From positions 2,542,001-2,606,000 of the forward strand of contig NC_081396.1 of assembly GCF_030684315.1 (NCBI RefSeq): a stretch of 64,000 bases of DNA, given 5' to 3'. Made by a program: the position numbers and the translations under genes. A model generated the notes under the pieces. It saw only the letters and a list, made by a program, of their open reading frames with translations, did not search any database and was not told the DNA's origin. Position 1 is the stretch's first letter; each line of letters starts with the position of its first letter. Positions 4,961 through 42,230 of the stretch are shown one piece after another. Source of the DNA: Stegostoma tigrinum. Lineage: Eukaryota.

Positions 4961-6129
4961 ACCATCCTGGGTGTACGTCAGGGCAAAGCAAATCCCTAGA
5001 GTGACATGTGAACTCACTGGTGTCTCCACTGTCAGTTGTGGGTCATTGCAACACTGTCCTTTTTGATCTCAGGGTGAACAAAGTGCCTCGGTTTACAAAT
5101 TAGAATTGCTTAAAACTAATCTTCTTCAAAAGAGCTTCATTGAGTCATTGTGGTTTCAGGTGGTGGTGAAAGGCGCTATAAAAATACAAGGACATCTGTC
5201 TTCATCCATCTCCATGATCATTTATACATTTGCTCGTGGAAATCTTCCCATCCATTCTGTCTCTCAGCAAGGTGTACAGCTCAATTCAAACTCCCCTCTG
5301 GTTCCTTTTTTCTGATCAACTGCAAGGTGGTGGGAAATGTTGGGGTCGTGGCCCAGACAGGACAAGGCAACTATCTTCCCTGTGTGAACCATACCATGAG
5401 ACACATTAAAGGCAACTCTGGATCTGTTGCACGGCCAAGGAAATGGGTTAGAAAGCTATTGAAGCTTCCCTACTTAGGATCATATCCTGATGGCTACGTT
5501 TCCTGATCATGCAAATTTTAAATGACTTCCTTCTGGATGAGTTATCGTTCAAACTCCAGAAAAGCCGTGTCAAAAAACCCACACTTTAACAGGTCTGTTT
5601 ATTTGCTGTCATTCGGGAAATTCTTGCTCCGAGAAATTGTACCGGACTGAAAACGTATCTGTTTTTCTTTCCACCGATGATGTCGGACCCGTAGAGCTCC
5701 TCCAGCCTTCTCTGCGTTTATTCTACATGAATGCTGTTTCTCATTCAATATCTTCAATCCCAGTCCTCTGGTAACTGGCCCAGGTCAGTGGAAACATTTT
5801 CTCCTGATCTGCTCCGTCAAACCACCCATCCTCAATCACACTCTGCCCCCACCATCAGGAAATCTCCGGTTAACTTTTTTGCTCCAAAGAAAACACTCCT
5901 GGCCTCAAGAATCTCTCCACAACATTGGATTTCCTCATCTCAGGATAGGGTGCAAGGTGGAGATTTTAAAGAATTTGGGAAGGGATATTGTTAGTTGGTG
6001 GGTGGGAAGGTGTTGAGGAAACCAAGAAGAAAGCTGGTCTCCAGCTTTGAGAACCTTTACAAACTGTGAGAGCTGCAATCAGTGGAGAGTGATGGGTGAA
6101 CTGGCCAACTAAGCAGAGACAGTCAAGGC

Positions 6130-6535: not shown

Positions 6536-6559
6536 ACGTGTAACAGCCCTAAATGTATT

Positions 6560-7455
6560 CAAGGATTCTACTACTTTCTACATTAATGATCTAGATGGAG
6601 GAAGAGAGGGCATATCTGGCTAAGTTTGCAGATGATACAAAGATAGGTAGAAAGACAGGTGTTATTGAGGAGGCAGGGAGGCTGTCGAAGGAGTTGGACA
6701 GGTTAGGAGAGTGGACAGCAAAGTAGCAGACGGAAGAATGTGGGAAGGTGTGAGGTCGTGAACTTTGGTTGGATGAATAGAGGCATAGACTATTTTCTAA
6801 ATGGGGAGAAAATTTAGAAATCTAAAGTGCAAAGGCACTTGGGAGTTCTAGTCCAGGATTCTCTCAAGATTAATTTTCTGTTTGAGTCAGTAATTAGGAA
6901 GGCAAATATAATGTTCGCATTTATTTCCAGAGGACAAAAAATAAAAGCTAGGATGTATGCCTCAAGCATTGTAATGCTCTGGTCAGACCAAATTTAGAGT
7001 ATTGTCAACAATTTTGGTTCTCATATCTCAGGAAGTATATATTGGCCCTTGAGCAGGTCCAGAGGAGATTCATGAGAATGATCCTGAGGATGAAAGGTTA
7101 ACCAATAATGAACATTTGAAGACTCTGGGTCTATACTTGATGGAGTTTAAAAGGATGAGGGGAGTTCTAATTGAAACGTACAAAGTACTGAAAGGCCTCG
7201 ACAGAATGAATGCTGGGAAGAGGTTTTCATAGTAGGAGAGACAAGGACCCAAGGGCATAGCCTTAGAACGAAGGGAAAGCCCTTTGGAACAAGAGATGAG
7301 GAGAAACGTCTTCAGCCAGAGAACGGTGAATCTATGGAATTCATTGCCGTGGAGGCCAGGTCTTTGAGTATTTTTAAGACAGAGATAGATATTTTCTTGA
7401 TTGTTAAGGAGCTCAAAGGTTACAGGGAGAAGGCATGCAACAGGAGTTGAGAAAC
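6560..7455 (+). mobile_element. Degenerate CR1 LINE, RT 3' part
   Basis: aagtttgcagatgatacaaag (KFADDTK) at ~6622; colinear with 50020-50800. Confidence 0.8.
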
Positions 7456-13089: not shown

Positions 13090-13545
13090 AGTATTCCTTT
13101 GGGACTCCAACTCCCACAATCCCTAAAGAGGGCAACACATCCTGAAACTGCGCATGTTCGCAGTGAAGGCGGGGCTTCGGATCACGTGCGCGGTGAACCG
13201 GGTGTGGGCACGTTCCGCGCTGTGATTTGCCGGCAAACGAGGGCAACCTCTTTTTTTCAGAGATAATGGGAACTGCAGATGCTGGAGATTCCAAGATGAT
13301 AAAATGTGAGGCTGGATGAACACAGCAGGCCAAGCAGCATCTCAGATGCTGCTTGGCCTGCTGTGTTCATCCAGCCTCACATTTTATCAACCTCTTTTTT
13401 TATTGGTCGATCCGCGGCGTCAAAGTGTCACCGCGCACACGTGGGCCCAGGTTCCACACTCAAATCGTCATAATGCCGAGAATTGACCAATGAGAAAGAA
13501 GAGAGGACCGGAAGCATTCTCCCAGCCTGAACCATGCCGCAGAAC
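13090..13545 (+). promoter_or_regulatory. CpG-rich promoter of the 14.3-kb ZNF gene
   Basis: ZNF143/SBS-like ACTCCAACTCCCACAATCCC at 13104-13123; TGCGCATG; GC box; CCAAT boxes; CCGGAAG. Confidence 0.6.
13258..13389. mobile_element. Short Penelope family A end fragment with inversion, forming a perfect hairpin; 14-bp TSD
   Basis: 46-bp perfect inverted repeat at 13297-13342 and 13344-13389; flanking caacctcttttttt at 13244-13257 and 13388-13401. Confidence 0.9.
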
Positions 13546-13561
13546 TGTGAGCAAAATCCTC

Positions 13562-13650
13562 AACCCCGAGCAGCTAGCGTGACGGGGTAGGTGTATAAAT
13601 GTTTATTTTTTGTATATTTTATTAATAAAGTATATTTTTTAACTAAAAAA
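13562..13650 (+). mobile_element. Severely 5'-truncated Tx1-like LINE 3' end related to the 30872-36209 element
   Basis: Matches the reverse complement of 30872-30966 (gggtaggtgtataaatgttt...aataaagtatatttt plus A tail); TSD gtgagcaaaatc(c/t)tc at 13547-13561 and 13651-13665. Confidence 0.85.
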
Positions 13651-14309
13651 GTGAGCAAAATCTTCTCTTTTATCTTCCTTTTCGTTTGCCTTTTTTCCGT
13701 TGTGTTAAATTATTGACATGTAGCAATTGAAGGGAAGCAAGTGAACTCAGGATGGGTGCACAGTCTCAAGAAGTAGTGAGTATGGATCTATTTGGAGAGT
13801 GGGGAGGGTGTATATTAGCGACAGCAGAGTGAACATCATAGGAGAAAGCGTGGGATGAAGGTTTACAGATTTGGGGGAACATCGAGGAAAAAGCTATCCC
13901 AGAGAAAATAGAATTGTGTGTTCTCAAAGTCTAATTTGGTATTTGTTCTTTTTTTTTACAGGATGCTAGAAGATAAATGCTTTCAGACAGAAATCACAAA
14001 ACAAACTTCATGTGCAGATAGTGACTAAATTAACCAAGATTTGAATAACCATTGAGGGATAAATGCCCATTTGTTCTGTCTGCAGCAAAGGTTTTAAATA
14101 TTAATTTGACTGAGACATATCCTACCACTCCCGAGTAACAGTCTTCCAATGAACTGACTCTGGCAAAAAAAAACTTTAACATGTGACACAGCCTGAAAAA
14201 CCATTACACCATTCACAGCAGGGAGACACCAATACCTGTGCTCTGTGCTCTGTGTGGGTAAGGCTTCAGCTGATCGTTGAACACTCAGAGACACAACAAC
14301 ACCCATAAC

Positions 14310-30335: not shown

Positions 30336-30632
<297 letters not shown>

Positions 30633-31154
30633 TCACTGGTGTCTTAAAAGGGTGAAATCCTCAGAAATTACTCCTCCCATCCTCGGAGCAAGTGAATGGT
30701 CTCTCTCCAGTGGCAGCATGCTGGTCTTTGCAAGGGCAGATGAGTCAGGGAATTCTTTCCCACATTCCAAGCAAGTTAGCGAGTTTTGAGAAGATTTGTA
30801 GCTCAGGTTGAAGTTCTGGATGTGAGTTTGCTCGCTGAGCTGGAAGGTTCGTTTTCAGACGTTTCATCACCTTTTTTTTTATTGGAAAAAATATACTTTA
30901 TTCATAGAATGTACAAAAAATAAAACATTTATACACCTACCCAGTCATGCAAGCCACTCCGGGTTACCCAGGGGGTACGTACACCAACTAAAGGGAAAAA
31001 AAAACAAAACAGAGAAAAAAAAAACAAAGCAAAGAAACCGCCCCGGCGGTCGTCACCCCGCACAGTCCCAGTTGGCCCCCTGACCAGTTGGGGAAGGCGC
31101 CAGCTGGGCCCAGTTACCAGATAGGATTCTTTTCCCTTTTCTGGACGAGGGGGC

Positions 31155-34100
31155 TCATACGGTGGTCTTTCCCCACCGCGCCTTGGCGGCGGCTGCCCCA
31201 AGCTTTAGCGCGTCCCTCAGCACGTAGCCCTGGACCTTGGAGTGCGCCAGTCTGCAACACTCGGTCGGGGGCAGTTCTTTCAGCTGGCAGACCAGCAAGT
31301 TGCGGGCAGACCAAAGAGCGTCTTTCACCGCATTGATGGTCCTCCAGGCGCAGTTGACGTTGGTCTCGGTGTGCGTCCCCGGAAACAGCCCGTAGAGCAC
31401 GGAGTCCCGCGTCACGGAGCTGCTCGGGACGAACCTCGACAAATACCACTGCATCCCCCTCCAGACCTCCTGCGCATAGGCACACTCCAGAAGGAGGTGA
31501 TCAACAGTCTCGTCCCCCCCGCAGCCACCCCGAGGGCAGCGTGCGGTGGTGCAGAGATTCCGGGCATGCATAAAGGATCTCACTGGCAGAGCCCCTCTCA
31601 CCGCCAGCCAAGCAATGTCCTTGTGCTTGTTTGAAAGTTCTGGCGATGAGGCATTCTGCCAAACGACTTTGGCAGTCTGCATGGGGAACCACACGACGGG
31701 ATCCACCCTCTCCTTTTCCCGAAGGGTCTCGAGGATACTACGTGCTGACCACTGCCTGACGGCCTTGTGGTCAAAGGTGTTTCCTTTCAAAAATTTCTCC
31801 ACGAAGGACAGGTGGTACGGAACGGTCCAACTACTCGGAGCGTTCCGCGGCAACGAGGCCAGGCCCATCCTTCGCAACACCGGGGACAGGTAGAACCTCA
31901 GTAAGTAGTGACACTTGGTGTTTGCGTACTGAGGATCTACGCACAGCTTGATGCAGCCACACACAAAGGTAGCCGTCAGGGCGAGGGTGGCGTTCGGTAC
32001 GCCCTTTCCCCCATTTCCCAGGTCTTTGTACATGGTATCTCTGCGGACCCGGTCCATCCTCGACCCCCAAATGAAGTGGAAGATGGCCCGGGTGACCGCA
32101 GCGGCGCAGGTCCAGGTAATAGGCCAGGCCTGCGCCACATACAACAGTACCGAAAGCCCCTCGCACCTGACAACCAGGTTCTTACCTGCGATGGAGGGAC
32201 CGGAGCGTCCACCTGCCCAGCTTCTGCTTAAATTTGGAGATACGCTCCTCCCAAGTCTTAGTGCATGCCCCAGCTCCACCAAACCAAACACCCAGCACCT
32301 TCAGGTAGTCTGTCCTGACGGTGAAGGGGATGAAGGAGCGGTCGTCCCAGTTCCTGAAGAACATGACCTCGCTCTTACCCCTATTGACTTTGGCACCCGA
32401 GGCCAGTTCAAACTGGCCGCAGATGTCCAACAGCCTACTCACCGACCGACGATCGGTGCAGAAGACGGCGACATCGTCCATGTACAGGGAGGTCTTGACC
32501 TGAAGGCCTCCGCTGCCTGGGATAGTCACGCCCTTCAGGCTCACGTCCTTCCTGATGGAGGCGGCGAAGGGCTCCACACAGCACACGAACAAGGCAGGAG
32601 AGAGCGGGCAGCCCTGCCTGACTCCAGATCTAACAGGAAAACTGTCTGATTCCCACCCGTTGATCGAGACTGCGCTAACGATGTTGGCGTAGAGCAGCCG
32701 GATCCAATTGCGGATACCATCCCCGAACCCCAATTTGGAGAGGACGTCCCTCATGTAAGCATGAGAGACCCTGTCGAAGGCCTTCTCCTGGTCCAGGCTG
32801 ACGAGGCAGGTGTCCACCCACCTGTCCTGTACGTAGGCGATTGTATTCCTGATGAGCGCGAGGCTCTCAGCGATCTTCCTGCCCGGCACAGCACAGGTTT
32901 GGTCAGGGTGAATCACCGACTCCAGGACAGACCTGACCCGGTTGGCAATGACCTTGGCCAGGATTTTGTAGTCCACGTTCAAAAGTGAAATGGGACGCCA
33001 ATTCTTAATTTCTTCCCTCTCCCCCTTCCTCTTGTAAATGAGGGTGATGATGCCCTTCCTCATGGACTTGCACATTTCCCCTGCCCGAAGCGCACTATCG
33101 TACACCTCCAGCAGGTCCTGGCCGACCAGGCCCCACAGAGCAGAATACAGCTCGACCGGTAAGCCATCACTTCCGGGAGTCCTATTCCTCTGCAAGGACT
33201 TGAGGGCTCTGGCCAGCTCGTCCAGGGATATCGGCCGGTCCAGCCACTCCCTCGTGCCGTCATCTAAGACCTCCGTGATAGACGACAGGAACGACGCGGA
33301 GGCCGTGCTGTCCGTGGGCTTCGTGTCGTACAGTCCGGCATAGAAGGATCTGCTGATCCTCAAAACGTCAGGCCGAGACGACGTCACCGAGCCGTCGTCC
33401 TCCTTCAGCCGGCTAAGCACAGAGCTCTCTTTGTGCACCTTCTGAAAGAAGAAACGCGAGCACGTCTCGTCCTGCTCCACGGAGCGGACCCTGGACCGGA
33501 AGATTATCCTGGAGGCCTCCGCGGCGAAGAGCGAGGCTTGCTGGCCCCTCACCTCGCGGAGGTCCTCCGTGACATCGACCCCCATCAACTGCAGAAGGAG
33601 CAGGTTCTGCACCCTTTTCTGGAGTCGCGACAGCTTTCCCCGCCTCTCTCTTGCCTTCTGAACACCCTTGAGGACAAAGAACCTCTTGATGTTCTCCTTC
33701 ACCGTCTCCCACCAGTCGCCTGGAGACTCAAAGAGGGGTTTCACGGTCCTCCAACCGGTGTACTCCCTCTTAAGCTCCTCGACGTTCTCTGGGGTCAACA
33801 GTTGTGTTGAGCTTCCACGTCCCCTTGCCGGCCGGCTGGTCGTCCTGTAAGTGACAGTCGGCCAACAGGAGGCAGTGGTCAGAGAAGAACACCGGCTCGA
33901 CACCAGTGGATCTGACCGAGAACGTCCGTGACACAAACAGGAAGTCTATCCTTGAGCGGATAGACCCGTCTGGCCGCGACCAGGTGTACCTCCGCTGCGC
34001 TCTGTCTGCAGGGGTGCTGAAGACGTCGAGCAGCTTGGCGTCCTTCATCGTGCCCATCAGGAATCTGGACGTGACGTCCAGTTGACTCCCCCCACCCGCT

Positions 34101-34570
34101 GTCCCCACGCCGGATCTTCCATCTGGATCGATGATGCAGTTGAAGTCTCCACCTAGGATGACCGGCCTGGATGTAGCCAGCAGGGGTGGAAGCCGCTGCA
34201 GGACGGCCAACCGCTCACTCCGTACCGCTGGGGCGTACACGTTGATCAGCCTCAGGGGAGCGTTCCTGTAGGTGATGTCAGCCACTAGGAGGCGCCCCCC
34301 CACCACCTCCTGAACTTGAGAGATGGTGAAGTTGTGCCCCCGCAGCAGAATAGCCAGGCCCGAGGAGCGACAGTCGTTACCCCCCGACCAGATTGAAGGC
34401 CCACAGGTCCAGGCGCCGGACCATTTCCCGTACCTGCCGAGGTGCGGTATCCCGCACTCCTGCAGAAACAGGAGGTCTGCCTTGATGGTGGTCAGCTAGG
34501 CCAACGTGGATACACATCTCGTGGTTGACTTGACGCTGCGCACATTAATGCTCGCAATTCGTACCCCCAT
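31155..34570 (-). pseudogene. Tx1-like ORF2: APE endonuclease, RT and C-terminal Cys/His motif; three lesions
   Basis: ATG at 34570 (MGVRIASINV); LQE, GDFN and SDH motifs; RT motifs WRPISLLNVDYK, QGCPLSP, YMDD; CPRGGCGGDETVDHLLLEC; in-frame TAG at 34498-34496 and frameshifts near 33800 and 32195. Confidence 0.9.
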
Positions 34571-36008
34571 TGTGGGCAGTGACCGCAGTACCCCCCCCAA
34601 GTCCAAGGTCCAGCCCCTCCATCTGTCCCTTCATGCCCATTGCCCGGGCTAACTGCTGGACGCTCTCTGGGCTCAGGAAACCGTCTGTGCTGCCTTCCGG
34701 GTGGCATCCCCCCGTCAGGGGTGCGGAGGCAGGAGGGTCCGGCTCCGGATCAGGCTGGGGACGTGCTGTTTCCTCCTTCCCGCCTGGAAGTTCCGGGGGG
34801 CCCTCCAGTGCTCCAGCGGCACTTGACTGGGTGTCGGAGTGAGCCTCAGGACGCCTCCAATCACCTGGAAGCGGGGTGCTGCTTTCCTTCCCCCTCGAGA
34901 CCTTTAACTTCTGCTTCGGGTGGGCCCTCTCCGAATCCTCCTCGTCAGAGGAGCTCTTATAGCCCCCCTGTAGCTGTCTCTTCCCTCCTGATTGTTGCAG
35001 TTCCTGGGCCCGTCGACGCACCTTCCTCCTCGCTTTCCGGACTGTAGTCCACTCCCCTGGGTCGCCTGTCGCCGCCTCCATTGGCTCCGGGTTGTCGGGG
35101 GAGATTGGAGCCTGCAGGGGTGCTTTGCTGGCCTCGGGCCCATCCTGCAGGGCTGGGCCCTCCTGCACGGCCTGGCCCTCCTGCACATTAGTGGGGTCCT
35201 TGCTGGGCCCTGGTGCCTTCCTCTCCTCCGGGGGGGCTGGCCCCGCATTTCCCCTGCCGGCGACCTGGGCGTAGGTGGTACCTCGCCGCGGGCATGCCCT
35301 ATAGAAGTGGCCCGCTTCCCCGCAAAGGTTGCAGCTTCTCTCTCGTGGGCAATCCTTTGCAAGGTGTCCCTCCTCCCTGCAGTTCCTGCAGATGGTGACT
35401 TTGCAGTCGGCCGCCACGTGACCTGACCTACCACAGGCATGGCAGACTTTAGGTTGCCCTGCATAGGTCAGGTAGCCCCTGCTCCCGCCGATCGCGAAGC
35501 TGGACGGTGGGTGTGCGACATTCCCGTCTGCGCCCATCCTCAGCGTCACCTTGACCTGCCTCTTACTCGTCCAGATGCCAAAGGGGTCCACCATGTCAGT
35601 TAGGTCCCCTTCCACCTTCACATACCTTCCGAGGAAGGTCAGGACATCAGCTGCTGGCACATGCGGGTTGTACATGTGTACAGTCACCATACGGCTCCTC
35701 TGCGCTGGCATCACAAACAGTGGGACAGCGGTCAATACAGAGAGGGGGCCCTCACCTCCTTTCTCCTTGAAAACCTCCAGGAAGCGCTCGCAAAGCTTGG
35801 CACTCCGGAAGGTCACATCGTAAAAACCCCCTCCGGGGAAATCCTGCAGGCAGTAAATGTCCGCAGCAGCGAACCCACAACAGTCCAACAGGACCCTCTT
35901 CACGAAGAAGGTGCGGTCCACAGGTGCACCCTCATCCACCTTCTTTACGGAAACACGGATGGTGTTCCGGACCCCCTGACCTGGGGCACGAGCACTTGCC
36001 GCAGCCAT
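34545..36008 (-). CDS. Tx1-like ORF1 nucleic-acid-binding protein with three CCHC zinc knuckles
   Basis: Open frame from MAAASARAPG; knuckles CHACGRSGHVAADC, CRNCREEGHLAKDC, CNLCGEAGHFYRAC; overlaps the ORF2 start by 26 nt. Confidence 0.9.
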   Translation of the reverse strand: MAAASARAPGQGVRNTIRVSVKKVDEGAPVDRTFFVKRVLLDCCGFAAADIYCLQDFPGGGFYDVTFRSAKLCERFLEVFKEKGGEGPLSVLTAVPLFVMPAQRSRMVTVHMYNPHVPAADVLTFLGRYVKVEGDLTDMVDPFGIWTSKRQVKVTLRMGADGNVAHPPSSFAIGGSRGYLTYAGQPKVCHACGRSGHVAADCKVTICRNCREEGHLAKDCPRERSCNLCGEAGHFYRACPRRGTTYAQVAGRGNAGPAPPEERKAPGPSKDPTNVQEGQAVQEGPALQDGPEASKAPLQAPISPDNPEPMEAATGDPGEWTTVRKARRKVRRRAQELQQSGGKRQLQGGYKSSSDEEDSERAHPKQKLKVSRGKESSTPLPGDWRRPEAHSDTQSSAAGALEGPPELPGGKEETARPQPDPEPDPPASAPLTGGCHPEGSTDGFLSPESVQQLARAMGMKGQMEGLDLGLGGGTAVTAHNGGTNCEH

Positions 36009-38149
36009 CGTTGCAGGTTGGCTGCTCCCCTGAACCAGCGTTAGGCCGAAGCCAGCATTAAGATCCACTGGTCGCAAGGGTGCACAGCCAACCCGACGTC
36101 CTCCTTTCACCTCCAAGACAGCACTCTCCTCCTCTCAGTCCACAAGAGAGTGGGTCTTTATTGTGTTCGAGATGTGAGCTGGTTCACTGAGCTGTAAGGT
36201 TTGTCCCCAGATGTTTTGTCACCATTCTAGGTAACATCATCAGTGAGCCTCCAACGAAGCTCTGGTGTTATGTCCCGCTTTCTATTTATCTGATTAGGTT
36301 TCCTTGGGTTGGTGATGTCATTTCCTGCATTGGTGATGTCATTTCCTGTTCTTTTTCTCAGGGGATGGTAGATTGGCTCCAAATCAATGTGTTTGTTGAT
36401 GGAGTTCCGGTTGGAATGCCATGCTTCTAGGAATTCTCATGCGTCTCTCTGTTTGGCTTGTCCTAGGATGGATGTGTTGTCCCAATCAAAGTGGTGTCCT
36501 TCCTCATCTGTATGTAAGGATACGAGTGATAGTGGGTCATATCGTTTTGTGGCTAGTTGATGTTCATGTATCCTGGTGGCTAGCTTTCTGCCTGTTTGTC
36601 CAATGTAGTGTTTGTCACAGTTCTTGCAAGGTATTTTGTAGATAACGTTCGTTTTGCTTGTTGTGTGTATAGGGTCTTTTAAGTTTATTAGCTGCTGTTT
36701 TAGTGTGTTGGTGGGTTTGTGGGCTACCCTGATGCCAAGAGGTCTGAGCAGTCATTTCGGAAATGTCTTTGATGTAGGGGAGAGTGGTTATGGTTTATCG
36801 GCACGTTTTGTCTGTTTGTTTGGGTTTGTTGCTGAGGAATCGGCGGACTGTGTTCATAGGGTACCCATTCTTTTTGAATACGCTGTATAGGTGATTTTCC
36901 TCTGCTCTGCATAGTTCCTCTGTGCTGCAGTGTGTGGAAAATGAAAATGAACCTTCCAGCTCAGCGAGCAAACTCACATCCATTCAGAGCAAGTGAATGG
37001 TCTCTCTCTGATGTGGCTGCGTCAATGAAACTCCAGCATTGACAGGGAACAGAATCCTATCCGACAGCCCTCACAATTCCATGGTTTCTCCATGTTTTGG
37101 GTGACTTGTCTCTGACAATAAGCTGGATCTTCATCCACCAGAACACAGGTATAGTCTATTCTTACCGTGAGCAGTGTGATGTTTCTGTAAGCTGAGATTG
37201 GTTGAAGCTACTTCAGCAGTCAGTTCACGAGAAGATTCTCATTGGGTGTCTATGTTTCGGTCTTTTCCAAAGAAACTGATCCTTAAATGTTTTGAATCAG
37301 ACATTTCTCCATGTATAGTTTCCAGCTGATGGTATTGAAGTCTAAGTTATTTTCAGCAATTCCTTTAGAGCTTCTTGTGATGGTTGTTTGGAGACCTGTA
37401 AATCTTCCCTTCTTGTAAACAAAACTTATAAAATTCATCACTTTGGTGCAGCTGGAAATTCAGAAGACAAATCTAATTTCTGTGGAATACTTTTTTCCTC
37501 TCCCATTCCCTAAAATCTGTAAACCTTCATCCCACACCCTCTCCCACCATTCTCACTCTGTTGCACCTAATATACTCATTTTCCTCATTCTCTTGAAGGA
37601 GCTGGTTAACAGATTCTGTTCTGAGGAAGGGTCACTCGACTTAAAATGTTAACTTTGATTTCTCTCCACTGATGCTGCCATACCTCCCAGTTTTTAACAG
37701 CAATTTCTGTTTTTGTACCAGATCCGCAACCATCATAGACCCTGCATCCTCTATGGGTTCACTTCCTTTCCTTTCAGTTGTTGCAAGTAAATAATTTGAC
37801 CACAGAATTTTTTTAAAAAAAGAAGAAACCGAGAAAAAGTGCTGTGCTCACAGACGTTGGATGGAAAGGGAGGTTTCAGTCTAGGTGAAGCTCAAGCTTC
37901 ATTTACAAAGAGGGGCAGAACGAGCAGCCTCAGAAACTCATGTTCTGAGTCTAAACATGCGGCAATGAGGGAGCTCTGATTGGCTGTAAATCCGTAGTTC
38001 TTCCAGTCTTTTGGCACTTTCTATTGGTCACCTGACTGAATTATAATGAGAAAGAGGGGGTGAACACGGACCACATGAGTTTACAAGGCATTGGTCTCCC
38101 ATTATGTGAAACGCCCCAGCCAATCGAAAAAAAAACAGGATGCCATGAT

Positions 38150-40325: not shown

Positions 40326-41625
40326 GGATGTGAGTTTGCTCGCTGAGCTGGAACGTTCGTTTTCAGATGTTTCGTCACCATTCTCGGTAACATCATCAGT
40401 GAACCTCTGGTGAAGCGCTGGTGTTATGTCCCGCTTTCTATTTATCTGTTTAGGTTTCCTTGGTTGGTGATGTCATTTCCTGTTCTTTTTCTCAGAGGGT
40501 GGTAGATGGGCTCCAAATCAATGTGTTTGTTGATGGAGGTCCGGTTGGAATGCCATGCTTCTAGGAATTCTCGTGCGTGTCTCTGTTTGGCTTGTCCCAG
40601 GATGGATGTGTTGTCCCAATCAAAGTGGTGTCCTTCCTCATCTGTATGTAAGGATACGAGTGAAAGTGGGTCATGTCGTTTTGTGGCTAGTTGATGTTCA
40701 TGTATCCTGGTGGCTAGCTTTCTGCCAGTTTGTCCAATGTAGTGTTTGTCACAGTTCTTGCAAGGTATTTTGTAGATAACGTTCGTTTTGCTTGTTGTGT
40801 GTATAGGGTCTTTTAAGTTTATTAGCTGCTGTTTTAGTGTGTTGGTGGGTTTGTGGGCTACCCTGATGCCAAGAGGTCTGAGCAGTCATTTCGGAAATGT
40901 CTTTGATGTAGGGGAGAGTGGTTATGGTTTATGGGCACGTTTTGTCTGTTTGTTTGGGTTTGTTGCTGAGGAATCGGCGGACTGTGTTCATAGGGTACCC
41001 ATTCTTTTTGAATACGCTGTATAGGTGATTTTCTTCTGGTCTTCGTAGTTCCTCTGTGCTGCAGTGTGTGGTGGCCCGTTGGAATAATGTTCTAATGCAG
41101 CTTCGTTTGTGGGTGTTGGGATGGTTGCTCCTGTAGTTCAGTATTTGGTCCGTATGTGTTGTTTTCCTGTAGACGCTGGTTTGAAGTTCCCCATTGGCTG
41201 TTCGCTCTACTGTGACATCTAGGAATGGCAGTTTATTGTTGTTTTCCTCCTCTTTTGTGAATGTTATGCCAGTAAGGGTATTATTGATGGTCTTGAAGGT
41301 TTCCTCTAATTTGTTTTGTTTAGTGATGACAAAGGTGTCATCCACGTAGCGGACCCAAAGTTTGGGTTGGATGATTGGCAGAGCTGTTTGTTCGAGTCTC
41401 TGCATTACTGCCTCTGCTAAGAACCCTGATATCGGAGATCCCATGGGTGTTCCGTTAGTTTGTCTGTAGGTTTTGTTATTGAAAGTGAAGTGGGTGGTGA
41501 GGCATAGGTCCACTAGCTTGATGATGTTGTCCTTGCTGATGAGGTTGGTGATGTCTGGTGTATGTGTCTTCGGTTCTTCTAATAGTGCAGTCAGGGTTTC
41601 TTTGGCCAGGTTCATGTTGATGGAT
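40326..41625 (-). mobile_element. Penelope-like element family B, 5'-truncated (RT, GIY-YIG, hammerhead terminus)
   Basis: ORF 40929-41615 with GTPMGSPIS, WVRYVDDTF, LPFLDV and SVYRKTTHTD; GIY-YIG downstream after a stop. Confidence 0.92.
40362..40403 (-). ncRNA. Minimal hammerhead ribozyme motif in the PLE family B terminus
   Basis: Minus strand ttcaCTGATGAtgttaccgagaatggtgacGAAACATCtgaa: stem I ttca/tgaa, stem II gttacc/ggtgac. Confidence 0.75.
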
Positions 41626-42230
41626 GCTTACCCCGCCCCCTGATTTGCTCCCGTTGATTGGAGGACCATCCCCCACAGCCTGGTCCGCCAGCTCGCCTAT
41701 TGGTCAGCTGGAAACCGTTGGTGTCAACGAGATCCCTTCTCAGAGAAGTGAAGGGAAATAAAGAAACTTTTTTAAAGTGACCTCTCCTTCGCCTCACCCA
41801 GGGGTGGGCGGGCAGGGGCAGGTTCCCGAGCGGCTTCAGGCTCCTAACCGGAGCTGGCAGCAGGTTGCACTGGAAACCCTGGCTCCAGGTGGAGGTGTGG
41901 GAAAATGGCTGGGGGCGGGGCTCCGAGCGCCCAGCCGGCAAGGTGGAACCCCATGACGTCACGCACGAGCTCCCCCGTTTCTATTGGCTGCTTCAGGTAA
42001 ACACCATCTCCCATTGTGAACGTCATAATGCGGAAGTCGTCCATCTTGCCTTAGAATGAGACTCCGCCCTTTTTGCAACATCTGGGAGCACAGCAATGTC
42101 TCCCCTTTTTCCATTTCTTTTCTCATCCCGGGAGGGAGTGAGACGGAGAAAATTGTTCACTTACAGCAATTCAAAGTACTGGAAGTCAATCCAGTGAAGG
42201 AACCGACTGTCCAAAAGTTGTTTCAGGTAT
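41626..42230 (+). promoter_or_regulatory. CpG-rich promoter and first exon of the 43.7-kb ZNF gene
   Basis: GC boxes; several ATTGG (CCAAT) motifs; perfect CRE TGACGTCA at 41954-41961; CGGAAGT; candidate donor caggtatg at ~42224. Confidence 0.65.

Follow-up and report, generated by a model that had tools for sequence, protein, structure and literature searches.

The stretch of DNA analyzed here (the window) covers 64,000 nt of contig NC_081396.1 of Stegostoma tigrinum. On its minus strand, a 5.3-kb long interspersed nuclear element (LINE; 30872–36170) has entered the terminal part of a Penelope-like element (PLE), and this PLE is itself placed in an array of C2H2 zinc fingers. The LINE represents a high-copy family of the Tx1 type, which throughout the genome is inserted site-specifically in the hammerhead motif of the Penelope terminal repeat. 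Read from its 3′ end, the element consists of an A9 tail (30872–30880), a 3′ untranslated region (UTR; 30881–31154), two open reading frames (ORFs), i.e., ORF2 (31155–34570) and ORF1 (34545–36008), and a LINE-specific 5′ UTR (36009–36170). ORF1 is open and encodes two ZCCHC3-like RNA-binding domains and CCHC knuckles. ORF2 encodes APE endonuclease, reverse transcriptase (RT) and C-terminal zinc-binding (zf-RVT) domains; in the window copy it is broken by a stop codon (34496–34498) and two frame changes (near 33770–33945 and 32182–32300), and another copy, L302, holds an uninterrupted ORF2 of 1,139 aa. The two ORFs with these domains and the A tail correspond to the architecture of the Tx1 clade.

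The host PLE lies on the same strand. Upstream of the LINE, its 5′-truncated terminal-repeat region (36244–36937) includes a GIY-YIG coding part at 36452–36751; downstream of the LINE follow the 3′ half of the hammerhead motif (30858–30871) and the tail (30777–30857), where the PLE reading-frame region starts. An inverted tail fragment on the plus strand (36942–36984) closes the insertion. An empty copy of the same PLE family, with RT and GIY-YIG coding parts, is located at 40327–41627 (minus strand) and served as a local pre-insertion control. The host gave an RVT_1 match with E 4e-8 and a GIY-YIG match with E 0.0011, which is under the curated cut-off. As in Penelope/Poseidon elements, RT is followed by a C-terminal GIY-YIG, the terminal repeat carries a tail, and the truncated arms are inverted. 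The two local PLE copies (36210–36937 and 40366–41071) are 92.7% identical and have a common frame-breaking deletion upstream of the GIY-YIG part, which suggests siblings or a local duplication.

Positions in the hammerhead are numbered on the minus strand from the predicted cleavage triplet GTC, with −1 as its C and +1 as the first base past it; +1 is 36209 at the 5′ junction of the window LINE and 30857 in its 3′ flank, where the tail runs from +1 to +81. The host motif reads CTCA-CTGATGA-T-GTTACC-TAGAAT-GGTGAC-GAAA-CG-TC and fits the minimal hammerhead layout of PMC4209133. Its identification rests on this architecture: we found the conserved core, helix II, palindromic helix III and helix I of a minimal type I hammerhead, and an Rfam scan of the 64-kb window gave no hammerhead match. 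The minimal hammerheads of Penelope/Poseidon elements (PMC4209133, PMC11167929) share with the host motif the CUGAUGA, the extra base before helix II, G10.1-C11.1, GAAA, the palindromic 15.2-16.2 and a short helix I, and the elements themselves share two tail-end modes, an ORF start at helix II and inverted truncated arms. They differ in that the passages concerned in both papers mention no LINE inserted in a hammerhead, and in that the motif described here is a predicted one. Older, diverged PLE families of the genome (L443, L444) have an identical hammerhead layout.

The A9 tail directly adjoins GGTGATGAAACGTC (30858–30871, minus strand), which comprises the 3′ strand of helix II, GAAA, palindromic helix III and GTC. 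The 5′ counterpart of this 14-mer (36210–36223) reads GGTGACAAAACATC, with three differences, every one at CpG. Between it and the LINE-specific 5′ UTR lies a PLE-derived leader segment (36171–36209, +1 to +39), which differs from 30819–30857 at 9 of 39 positions, whereas the PLE copies at 40327 and 36942 (inverted) each differ from the latter at 1 of 39. At the junction the core region is rebuilt (36210–36243, −1 to −34), and together with the 5′ strand of stem I (36244–36247) it offers four possible stem I pairs vs. three in the host. The features that the original prediction had read from the window were confirmed upon re-examination, including the restored hammerhead geometry. In the core of the window copy, −3 (36212) and −8 (36217, G12>A) are of the LINE type and −31 (36240) is of the host type.

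Genome-wide searches were performed on the 3.2-Gb S. tigrinum genome, with motifs counted as exact matches. Results showed 2,867 matches for the LINE 3′ UTR motif, 1,675 for the 5′ UTR motif, 13,728 for the generic hammerhead core and 1,455 for the core followed by the LINE-type TGGG. As 29 of 30 inspected core+TGGG loci ran on into the LINE, we rejected the possibility that 36171–36260 is an independent older PLE or a tandem terminal repeat. Two sets of 30 were examined for each element end, an unselected one (for the 3′ ends, the first 30) and a best-match one. The target was adjoined by 28/30 unselected 3′ ends, either in a host PLE or in the leader of another LINE, with 2/30 off target, and by all 30 best-match 3′ ends, 17 of which join at GGTGA and 13 at GTGA. 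Thus, the proposed targeting of PLE hammerheads was confirmed, and the insertion point is either of two neighboring bases in helix II. Target specificity in Tx1 elements was previously set at >20% of flanks in one repeat (PMC4494074); the flanks of this family exceed that share and its 3′ junction is fixed.

Off-target copies (L264, L274, L455, L461 and one in the window) are short and share 86–89% identity with the window copy; those that could be read are flanked by 13–16-bp duplications. The one in the window is a 3′ fragment at 13549–13665 (plus strand, 86% identical) in a non-PLE site; the 15-bp duplication reported for it (at 13562) is indeed present, but it is imperfect. In four truncated on-target copies (L058, L078, L262, L299), the 5′ flank stops 14–18 nt beyond the insertion point, and therefore the second break falls close to the cleavage site. 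This closeness is probably a coincidence of duplication length, and it accounts for the earlier placement of the LINE 5′ end at the cleavage site. Of 199 pooled junctions, 174 run on into PLE sequence, 21 come in tandem after the tail of another LINE, and 4 were left unclassified by the filter. Tandem arrays arise because each junction restores the target. The 17 regions around 3′ ends for which no 5′ end was matched are mostly older full-length or rearranged copies. Inverted PLE insertions often have both arms occupied by LINEs (L114/L115, L127/L128), and at L457 and L463 head-to-head LINE remnants are joined via a central deletion.

The PLE-like leader precedes the 5′ UTR at 30/30 best-match and 30/30 unselected loci, and its fixed alleles from +3 to +31 are present at 73–75 of 75 junctions. 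These data support the assignment of the 39-nt segment to the LINE, as originally proposed. Together with the 3′-end counts given above, they exclude a chance association. One of the leader alleles, +24 C>T, creates a stop codon in the PLE frame. Empty PLE tails end in two modes, at about +36 to +50 (81/172) and at +71 to +81 (73/172), and two such modes were described for the anole PLE too (PMC11167929). As the leader ends at +39, it was probably captured from a short-tailed PLE end. In one copy, L298, 193 nt of LINE 5′ UTR sequence are duplicated in tandem, with the restart at about +5 of the leader.

LINE-enriched alleles are also found upstream of the cleavage site. We compared 75 LINE junctions (5′ UTR- and 3′-selected loci only) with 60 empty PLE ends and observed −3 G>A in 61 vs. 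6, −8 G>A in 28 vs. 6 and −31 A>T in 30 vs. 0; apart from these three, no position between −100 and −1 passed correction in this comparison. Loci picked on core alleles (L141–152, L283–297) were excluded from the tree and the pooled frequency tables, while the pooled tree, linkage and upstream-length sets contain GATT-selected and core+TGGG-selected loci. In the pooled set, −31T was present in 76 of 174 junctions (G and C in three each) vs. 0 of 62 empty ends, and a hand count gave 44 of the first 100 TGGG junctions. Its frequency in three identity classes was 13/30, 14/28 and 11/18 (43–61%). The −31T core followed by the host-type TGAA has 141 genome matches; 4 of the 12 inspected were still LINE junctions. 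Decay of the −4/−3 CpG, counted by hand, falls almost wholly on one side in 100 TGGG junctions (79 vs. 1) and about evenly on both sides in 88 empty cores (8 vs. 11).

A further haplotype, GAC(N)GATTGTC, is carried by 99 copies on dozens of contigs; in it, (T/G/A)GATT replaces GAAAC at −8 to −4, which destroys the GAAA. Twenty GATT copies were followed to their 3′ ends and 18 were scored: the haplotype was present at the 5′ end in 18/18 and in the 3′ flank in 0/18. Allele changes were then mapped on a tree built from 91 LINE bodies, with 76 rows in the count, and compared with those in 200 label shuffles. GATT required 4 changes vs. 15.6 for shuffled labels, resembling the control alleles at +5 and +13/14. 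The signal of −3 was weaker (reached by 6/200 shuffles) and that of −8 marginal (18/200). We also examined 60 pairs of 5′ and 3′ flanks from three sets, of which 44 were scored, 11 were unresolved and 5 had the leader of another LINE as 3′ flank; the 13-mers were identical in 2/44. The 5′-side 14 nt of full-length copies is mostly not duplicated target.

These alleles bear directly on the proposal of the original prediction that the rebuilt host hammerhead frees the LINE RNA from read-through transcripts of the PLE, with the cleavage site as its start. The rebuilt stem I, the end of the duplication near the triplet in truncated copies and the existence of 107 junctions with an intact core (15/15 inspected were LINE junctions) agree with such a release. 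However, an RNA cut after GUC cannot transmit LINE alleles lying upstream of the cut, and therefore the template RNA did not begin there; the GATT lineage refutes release as the main route. A fully host-like core was found in 107 of the 1,455 TGGG junctions vs. 50 of 88 empty cores (the latter counted by hand), and in the aligned sets in 2/75 unselected junctions vs. 34/60 empty ends, so the mutated core, regarded earlier as a quirk of the window copy, is the family norm. A ribozyme-processed, R2-like element would be expected to keep an intact core at full-length junctions and to lack element-borne variation upstream of the cleavage site; here the core is rarely intact and such variation is present. 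In addition, hammerhead mutants of the anole PLE left in vitro insertion unchanged and no RNA-seq reads started at its cleavage site (PMC11167929). Together, these data make release by the host ribozyme extremely improbable.

On this genetic evidence, the RNA templating full-length copies was instead mostly uncut at GUC and spans +39 back through at least −31, and more weakly to −52. All three enriched upstream alleles fall in the core or helix III of the motif. Position −31 is A6 of CUGAUGA, and substitutions of A6 impair hammerhead cleavage. The change at −3 breaks the palindrome needed for a dimer and leaves 2/4 helix III pairs. Position −8 corresponds to G12, the general base (PMC6155905). 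In predicted folds of the variants the two core strands pair with each other, which is only suggestive of inactivation. The hammerhead copy of the leader is mutated and probably dead. Lesions differ with age, since old lineages carry GATT (14/18, in a GATT-enriched sample) and young ones ACATC (28/30). The enriched core lesions, together with the persistence of −31T at about 44% with no tree signal, tentatively suggest selection for a dead ribozyme.

On the basis of these comparisons we consider it probable that this Tx1-type LINE is a parasite of an abundant Penelope of the Poseidon type, whose terminal repeat it invades, and that it relies on an uncut, PLE-derived leader. The junctions show that the first strand is inserted in helix II at GAAT^GGTGAC or GAATG^GTGAC, with the site presumably set by the APE endonuclease and with priming on the LINE A tail. 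In the four truncated on-target copies, the second break is seen about 14–18 nt downstream, near the cleavage site. The template RNA includes the PLE-like sequence, and its transcription probably starts upstream in the host PLE repeat, in which case the LINE borrows the promoter of its host and not the ribozyme. The end of the cDNA then probably anneals to the target and so produces the precise full-length 5′ junctions with mixed LINE and host alleles, for which R2 provides a precedent and with which the allele gradient is in line. Regeneration of the target at the junction allows the tandem growth seen in the arrays.

The extent of upstream PLE at occupied sites is informative in this respect. 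Less than 100 nt of upstream PLE was found at 1/193 occupied vs. 20/101 empty sites (p 2e-9, or 3e-7 with inverted pairs collapsed), and the length distribution, which has no spike, is that expected if short hosts are excluded and not if upstream sequence is converted up to a set boundary. Behind this need for about 100 nt may lie homology with the RNA, recognition by protein or access that depends on the promoter. Junctions also show an excess of C>T alleles at −52, −47 and −44, which does not extend further up and points weakly to a longer RNA. An apparent leader boundary at about −118 was rejected, as the cluster is a 21-bp internal repeat present in empty copies too. The PLE terminal region from −138 to −75 (about 36284–36350) contains one or two copies of this repeat with GGAAATGACATCA, plus the AT-rich word GATAAATAG; lying inside the stretch retained by occupied sites, both are candidate promoter elements. 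The change −81 G>T, which makes a TATA-like word, was present in 9/76 vs. 2/91 (p 0.024, lost after multiple testing). A transcription start site of Penelope was placed in the terminal repeat (PMC8557442). Contigs of four sequencing runs under other organism labels were also inspected: one run covers all 30 element bins and one has empty-site joints, and among the pieces listed none bridges the 5′ junction.

Several observations weigh against transmission through a long, uncut RNA and against selection on its ribozyme. Tandem-duplication leader junctions, the mark of an RNA 5′ end, had 0 matches for ends between −34 and −51, and the 5 matches for −53 to −65 include no duplicated-leader junction. 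The alleles at −45 and −84 show at most a marginal tree signal, so that a reach of the RNA that far is not established, and the only Penelope promoter characterized so far lies internally and lacks a TATA box (PMC2377424). In about 20% of junctions the alleles are those of the host as far as the cleavage site, and a minority route via cleaved RNA may account for these. On the LINE-body tree −31T required 23 changes vs. 24.1 for shuffled labels; its linkage to −8A is weak (32/65 vs. 26/81, p 0.04) and to −3A there is none, and its inheritance is therefore deduced from frequency alone. As two of the three enriched sites (−3 and −8) are CpG, their core position is weak evidence of selection. Finally, the PLE start codon begins at −31, and selection could therefore have acted on translation.

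The CpG context of −3 and −8, both transitions, leads to an account in which the leader is uncut but its lesions are neutral, arising by CpG decay and founder effects of a few long-lived masters, with a hammerhead that may barely cleave in vivo. Few differences are expected between −45 and −1 anyway, since this region is conserved among PLEs, and minimal PLE hammerheads cleave poorly in vitro (PMC4209133). Yet two different lesions succeed each other, GATT in old and ACATC in young lineages, and −31T remains steady in all three age classes though about half of the copies are host-allelic. At 50% retention, such an equilibrium requires that −31A copies be about 0.1 as productive, and at 80% retention 0.64. 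We regard neutrality as unlikely on these grounds. Selection of the core lesions because an intact core would sever the capped, homology-bearing leader is an explanation that we put forward only tentatively. Still more guardedly, we suggest that the family could be an obligate promoter parasite of Penelope repeats, with its leader in a conversion-selection balance: any insertion could replace the leader hammerhead by the active one of the host, a copy regaining it would become a poor source through cleavage of its RNA, and successive lineages would fix different lesions.

The start-codon position of −31 raises another alternative, that −31T is selected for translation or transcription and not against catalysis, either because it drops the first PLE-frame ATG and deprives the second ATG of its −3 purine or because it improves a promoter element. 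The host frame from −31 reads MMLPRMVTK and is open through the tail, the anole PLE ORF begins at helix II as well (PMC11167929), and +24 C>T (73/75) closes the host frame in the leader. Such selection would also account for the persistence of −31T in lineages that already have −3A. On the other hand, a third ATG at −16, in a strong context, is retained in the leader, and −3, −8 and GATT are left unexplained, so we find this alternative quite unlikely.

The frequency of −31T is compatible with an allele that most source RNAs carry and that about half of the insertions keep after heteroduplex resolution, and also with a recurrent scar. In the latter case, the RNA would begin at −30, and RT would add an untemplated base that is fixed in roughly half of insertions. 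A frequency of about 50% in every subclade with no tree signal, and the base counts at −31 (T 76, G 3 and C 3 of 174), are in keeping with a scar. Nevertheless, a terminal mismatch beside an annealed end should be trimmed, and the C>T excess at −52, −47 and −44 and the requirement for upstream PLE point to a longer RNA; we judge the scar improbable.

We also considered whether the shared upstream alleles spread only after insertion, through gene conversion at the DNA level or segmental duplication among PLE copies flanked by LINEs. Some loci are duplicates (L113 and L115 have 2 kb in common, host structure included), and empty PLEs with leader alleles exist (L186, L202, L209). Against this, hosts vary in length and structure, 3′ flanks are unconverted, alleles follow the LINE-body tree, and the GATT copies are widely dispersed, all of which makes such spread very improbable. 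The empty ends just mentioned and L119 carry LINE-leader alleles followed by the host tail with no LINE body, possibly as a result of excision between the 53-nt direct repeats or of an abortive insertion with conversion.

Comparative analyses strongly suggest that the LINE belongs among Tx1 elements. Homologs of ORF2 include the zebrafish ‘transposon TX1 uncharacterized 149 kDa protein’ (37%), and human L1 ORF2p scored far lower. In a tree built on sequences other than curated Tx1L, Kibi, Koshi and L1 references, ORF2 groups first with amphibian proteins (45–47% identity, support 100), and the sister clade of this group contains the U2-flanked elements L363 and L364, to which ORF2 is 36–37% identical. 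The closest named relatives of ORF1 are from cartilaginous fishes. Among 80 metagenome loci with a related ORF2, no hammerhead was found beside the element end, and three motif matches were internal or due to chance. On the metagenome contig L363 the related element is inserted in a U2 gene and a U5 gene comes next (5786–5960, 6549–6665), in a Keno-like arrangement.

Keno, a Tx1 element targeting U2 small nuclear RNA, was described along with Utopia (PMC4640811). It resembles the present family in its related ORF2 and in the choice of a conserved structured RNA locus, but the target differs: the flanks here are PLE, not U2, and Rfam finds no U2 in the window. The Keno name of L363 rests on the U2 flank and the published description (PMC4494074). 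Transposon-targeting Tx1 elements are represented by Xenopus Tx1L, which inserts into Tx1D, and crocodilian Tx1-Mar, which inserts into Mariner-N4_AMi, and Tx1-8_Crp and Tx1-4_AMi insert into long terminal repeat (LTR) elements (PMC4494074). All of these share with the family a Tx1-type LINE, an APE endonuclease, a preferred site inside another transposon and tandem insertions; what sets the family apart is the Penelope hammerhead target and a family-wide, target-derived leader that spans both sides of the insertion point and bears core lesions. A target-derived 5′ extension and possible transcription from the flanking target were described for SINEU-2B (PMC4494074). A literature search for Tx1 elements with Penelope or the Penelope hammerhead as their target retrieved no such report, with most subscription journals, Repbase and the supplements of PMC4494074 outside its scope, and Tx1 is unmentioned in the passages concerned of bioRxiv 10.64898/2026.07.22.740005.

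R2 of earwig, sow bug and silkmoth shows target co-transcription, a target-homologous RNA leader, heteroduplex-primed uniform 5′ junctions and propagated junction variants, and the 5′ end of earwig R2 holds 22 bp that derive from downstream target and contain substitutions (PMC3774820). The LINE family likewise has a target-homologous leader and downstream target sequence fixed at the element 5′ end. R2 differs in its restriction-like endonuclease (RLE) and its own active ribozyme of the hepatitis delta virus (HDV) type, which defines the 5′ end; in the LINE family the ribozyme motif belongs to its target and carries mutations, and the search for tandem-duplication junctions gave none.

The Penelope hammerhead is an addition to the known Tx1 targets, and the data reverse the ribozyme-borrowing model; the family carries a mutated, probably dead ribozyme copy at its front end. 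PLE hammerheads have low in vitro activity, the passages concerned offer no in vivo evidence for them, and cleavage is not needed in vitro (PMC4209133, PMC11167929). The family amounts to a natural experiment on in vivo cleavage by these minimal motifs: selection to break the motif, if true, argues that the motif cuts. One transposon would then repeatedly disarm the ribozyme of another, leaving genome-scale, indirect evidence of minimal PLE hammerhead cleavage in the vertebrate germ line. The junction set bears also on a second question, the formation of non-LTR 5′ junctions, as the marked positions that flank the two breaks in about 1,500 full-length junctions record how far cDNA vs. target alleles persist. 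A young, A-tailed, APE-type family with >90% site fidelity and mostly full-length copies is a candidate for studying homology-assisted, site-specific integration.

As for the surroundings, the window is a zinc-finger gene cluster. The combined PLE and LINE insertion splits a zinc-finger array (30429–30776 and 36981–37157), and an imperfect repeat of about 13 nt flanks both sides. At 13297–13389 we observed a 93-nt near-perfect palindrome built from a short repeat family with many further copies across the window; a weak Rfam match to the signal recognition particle (SRP) RNA at this position is probably due to the hairpin.

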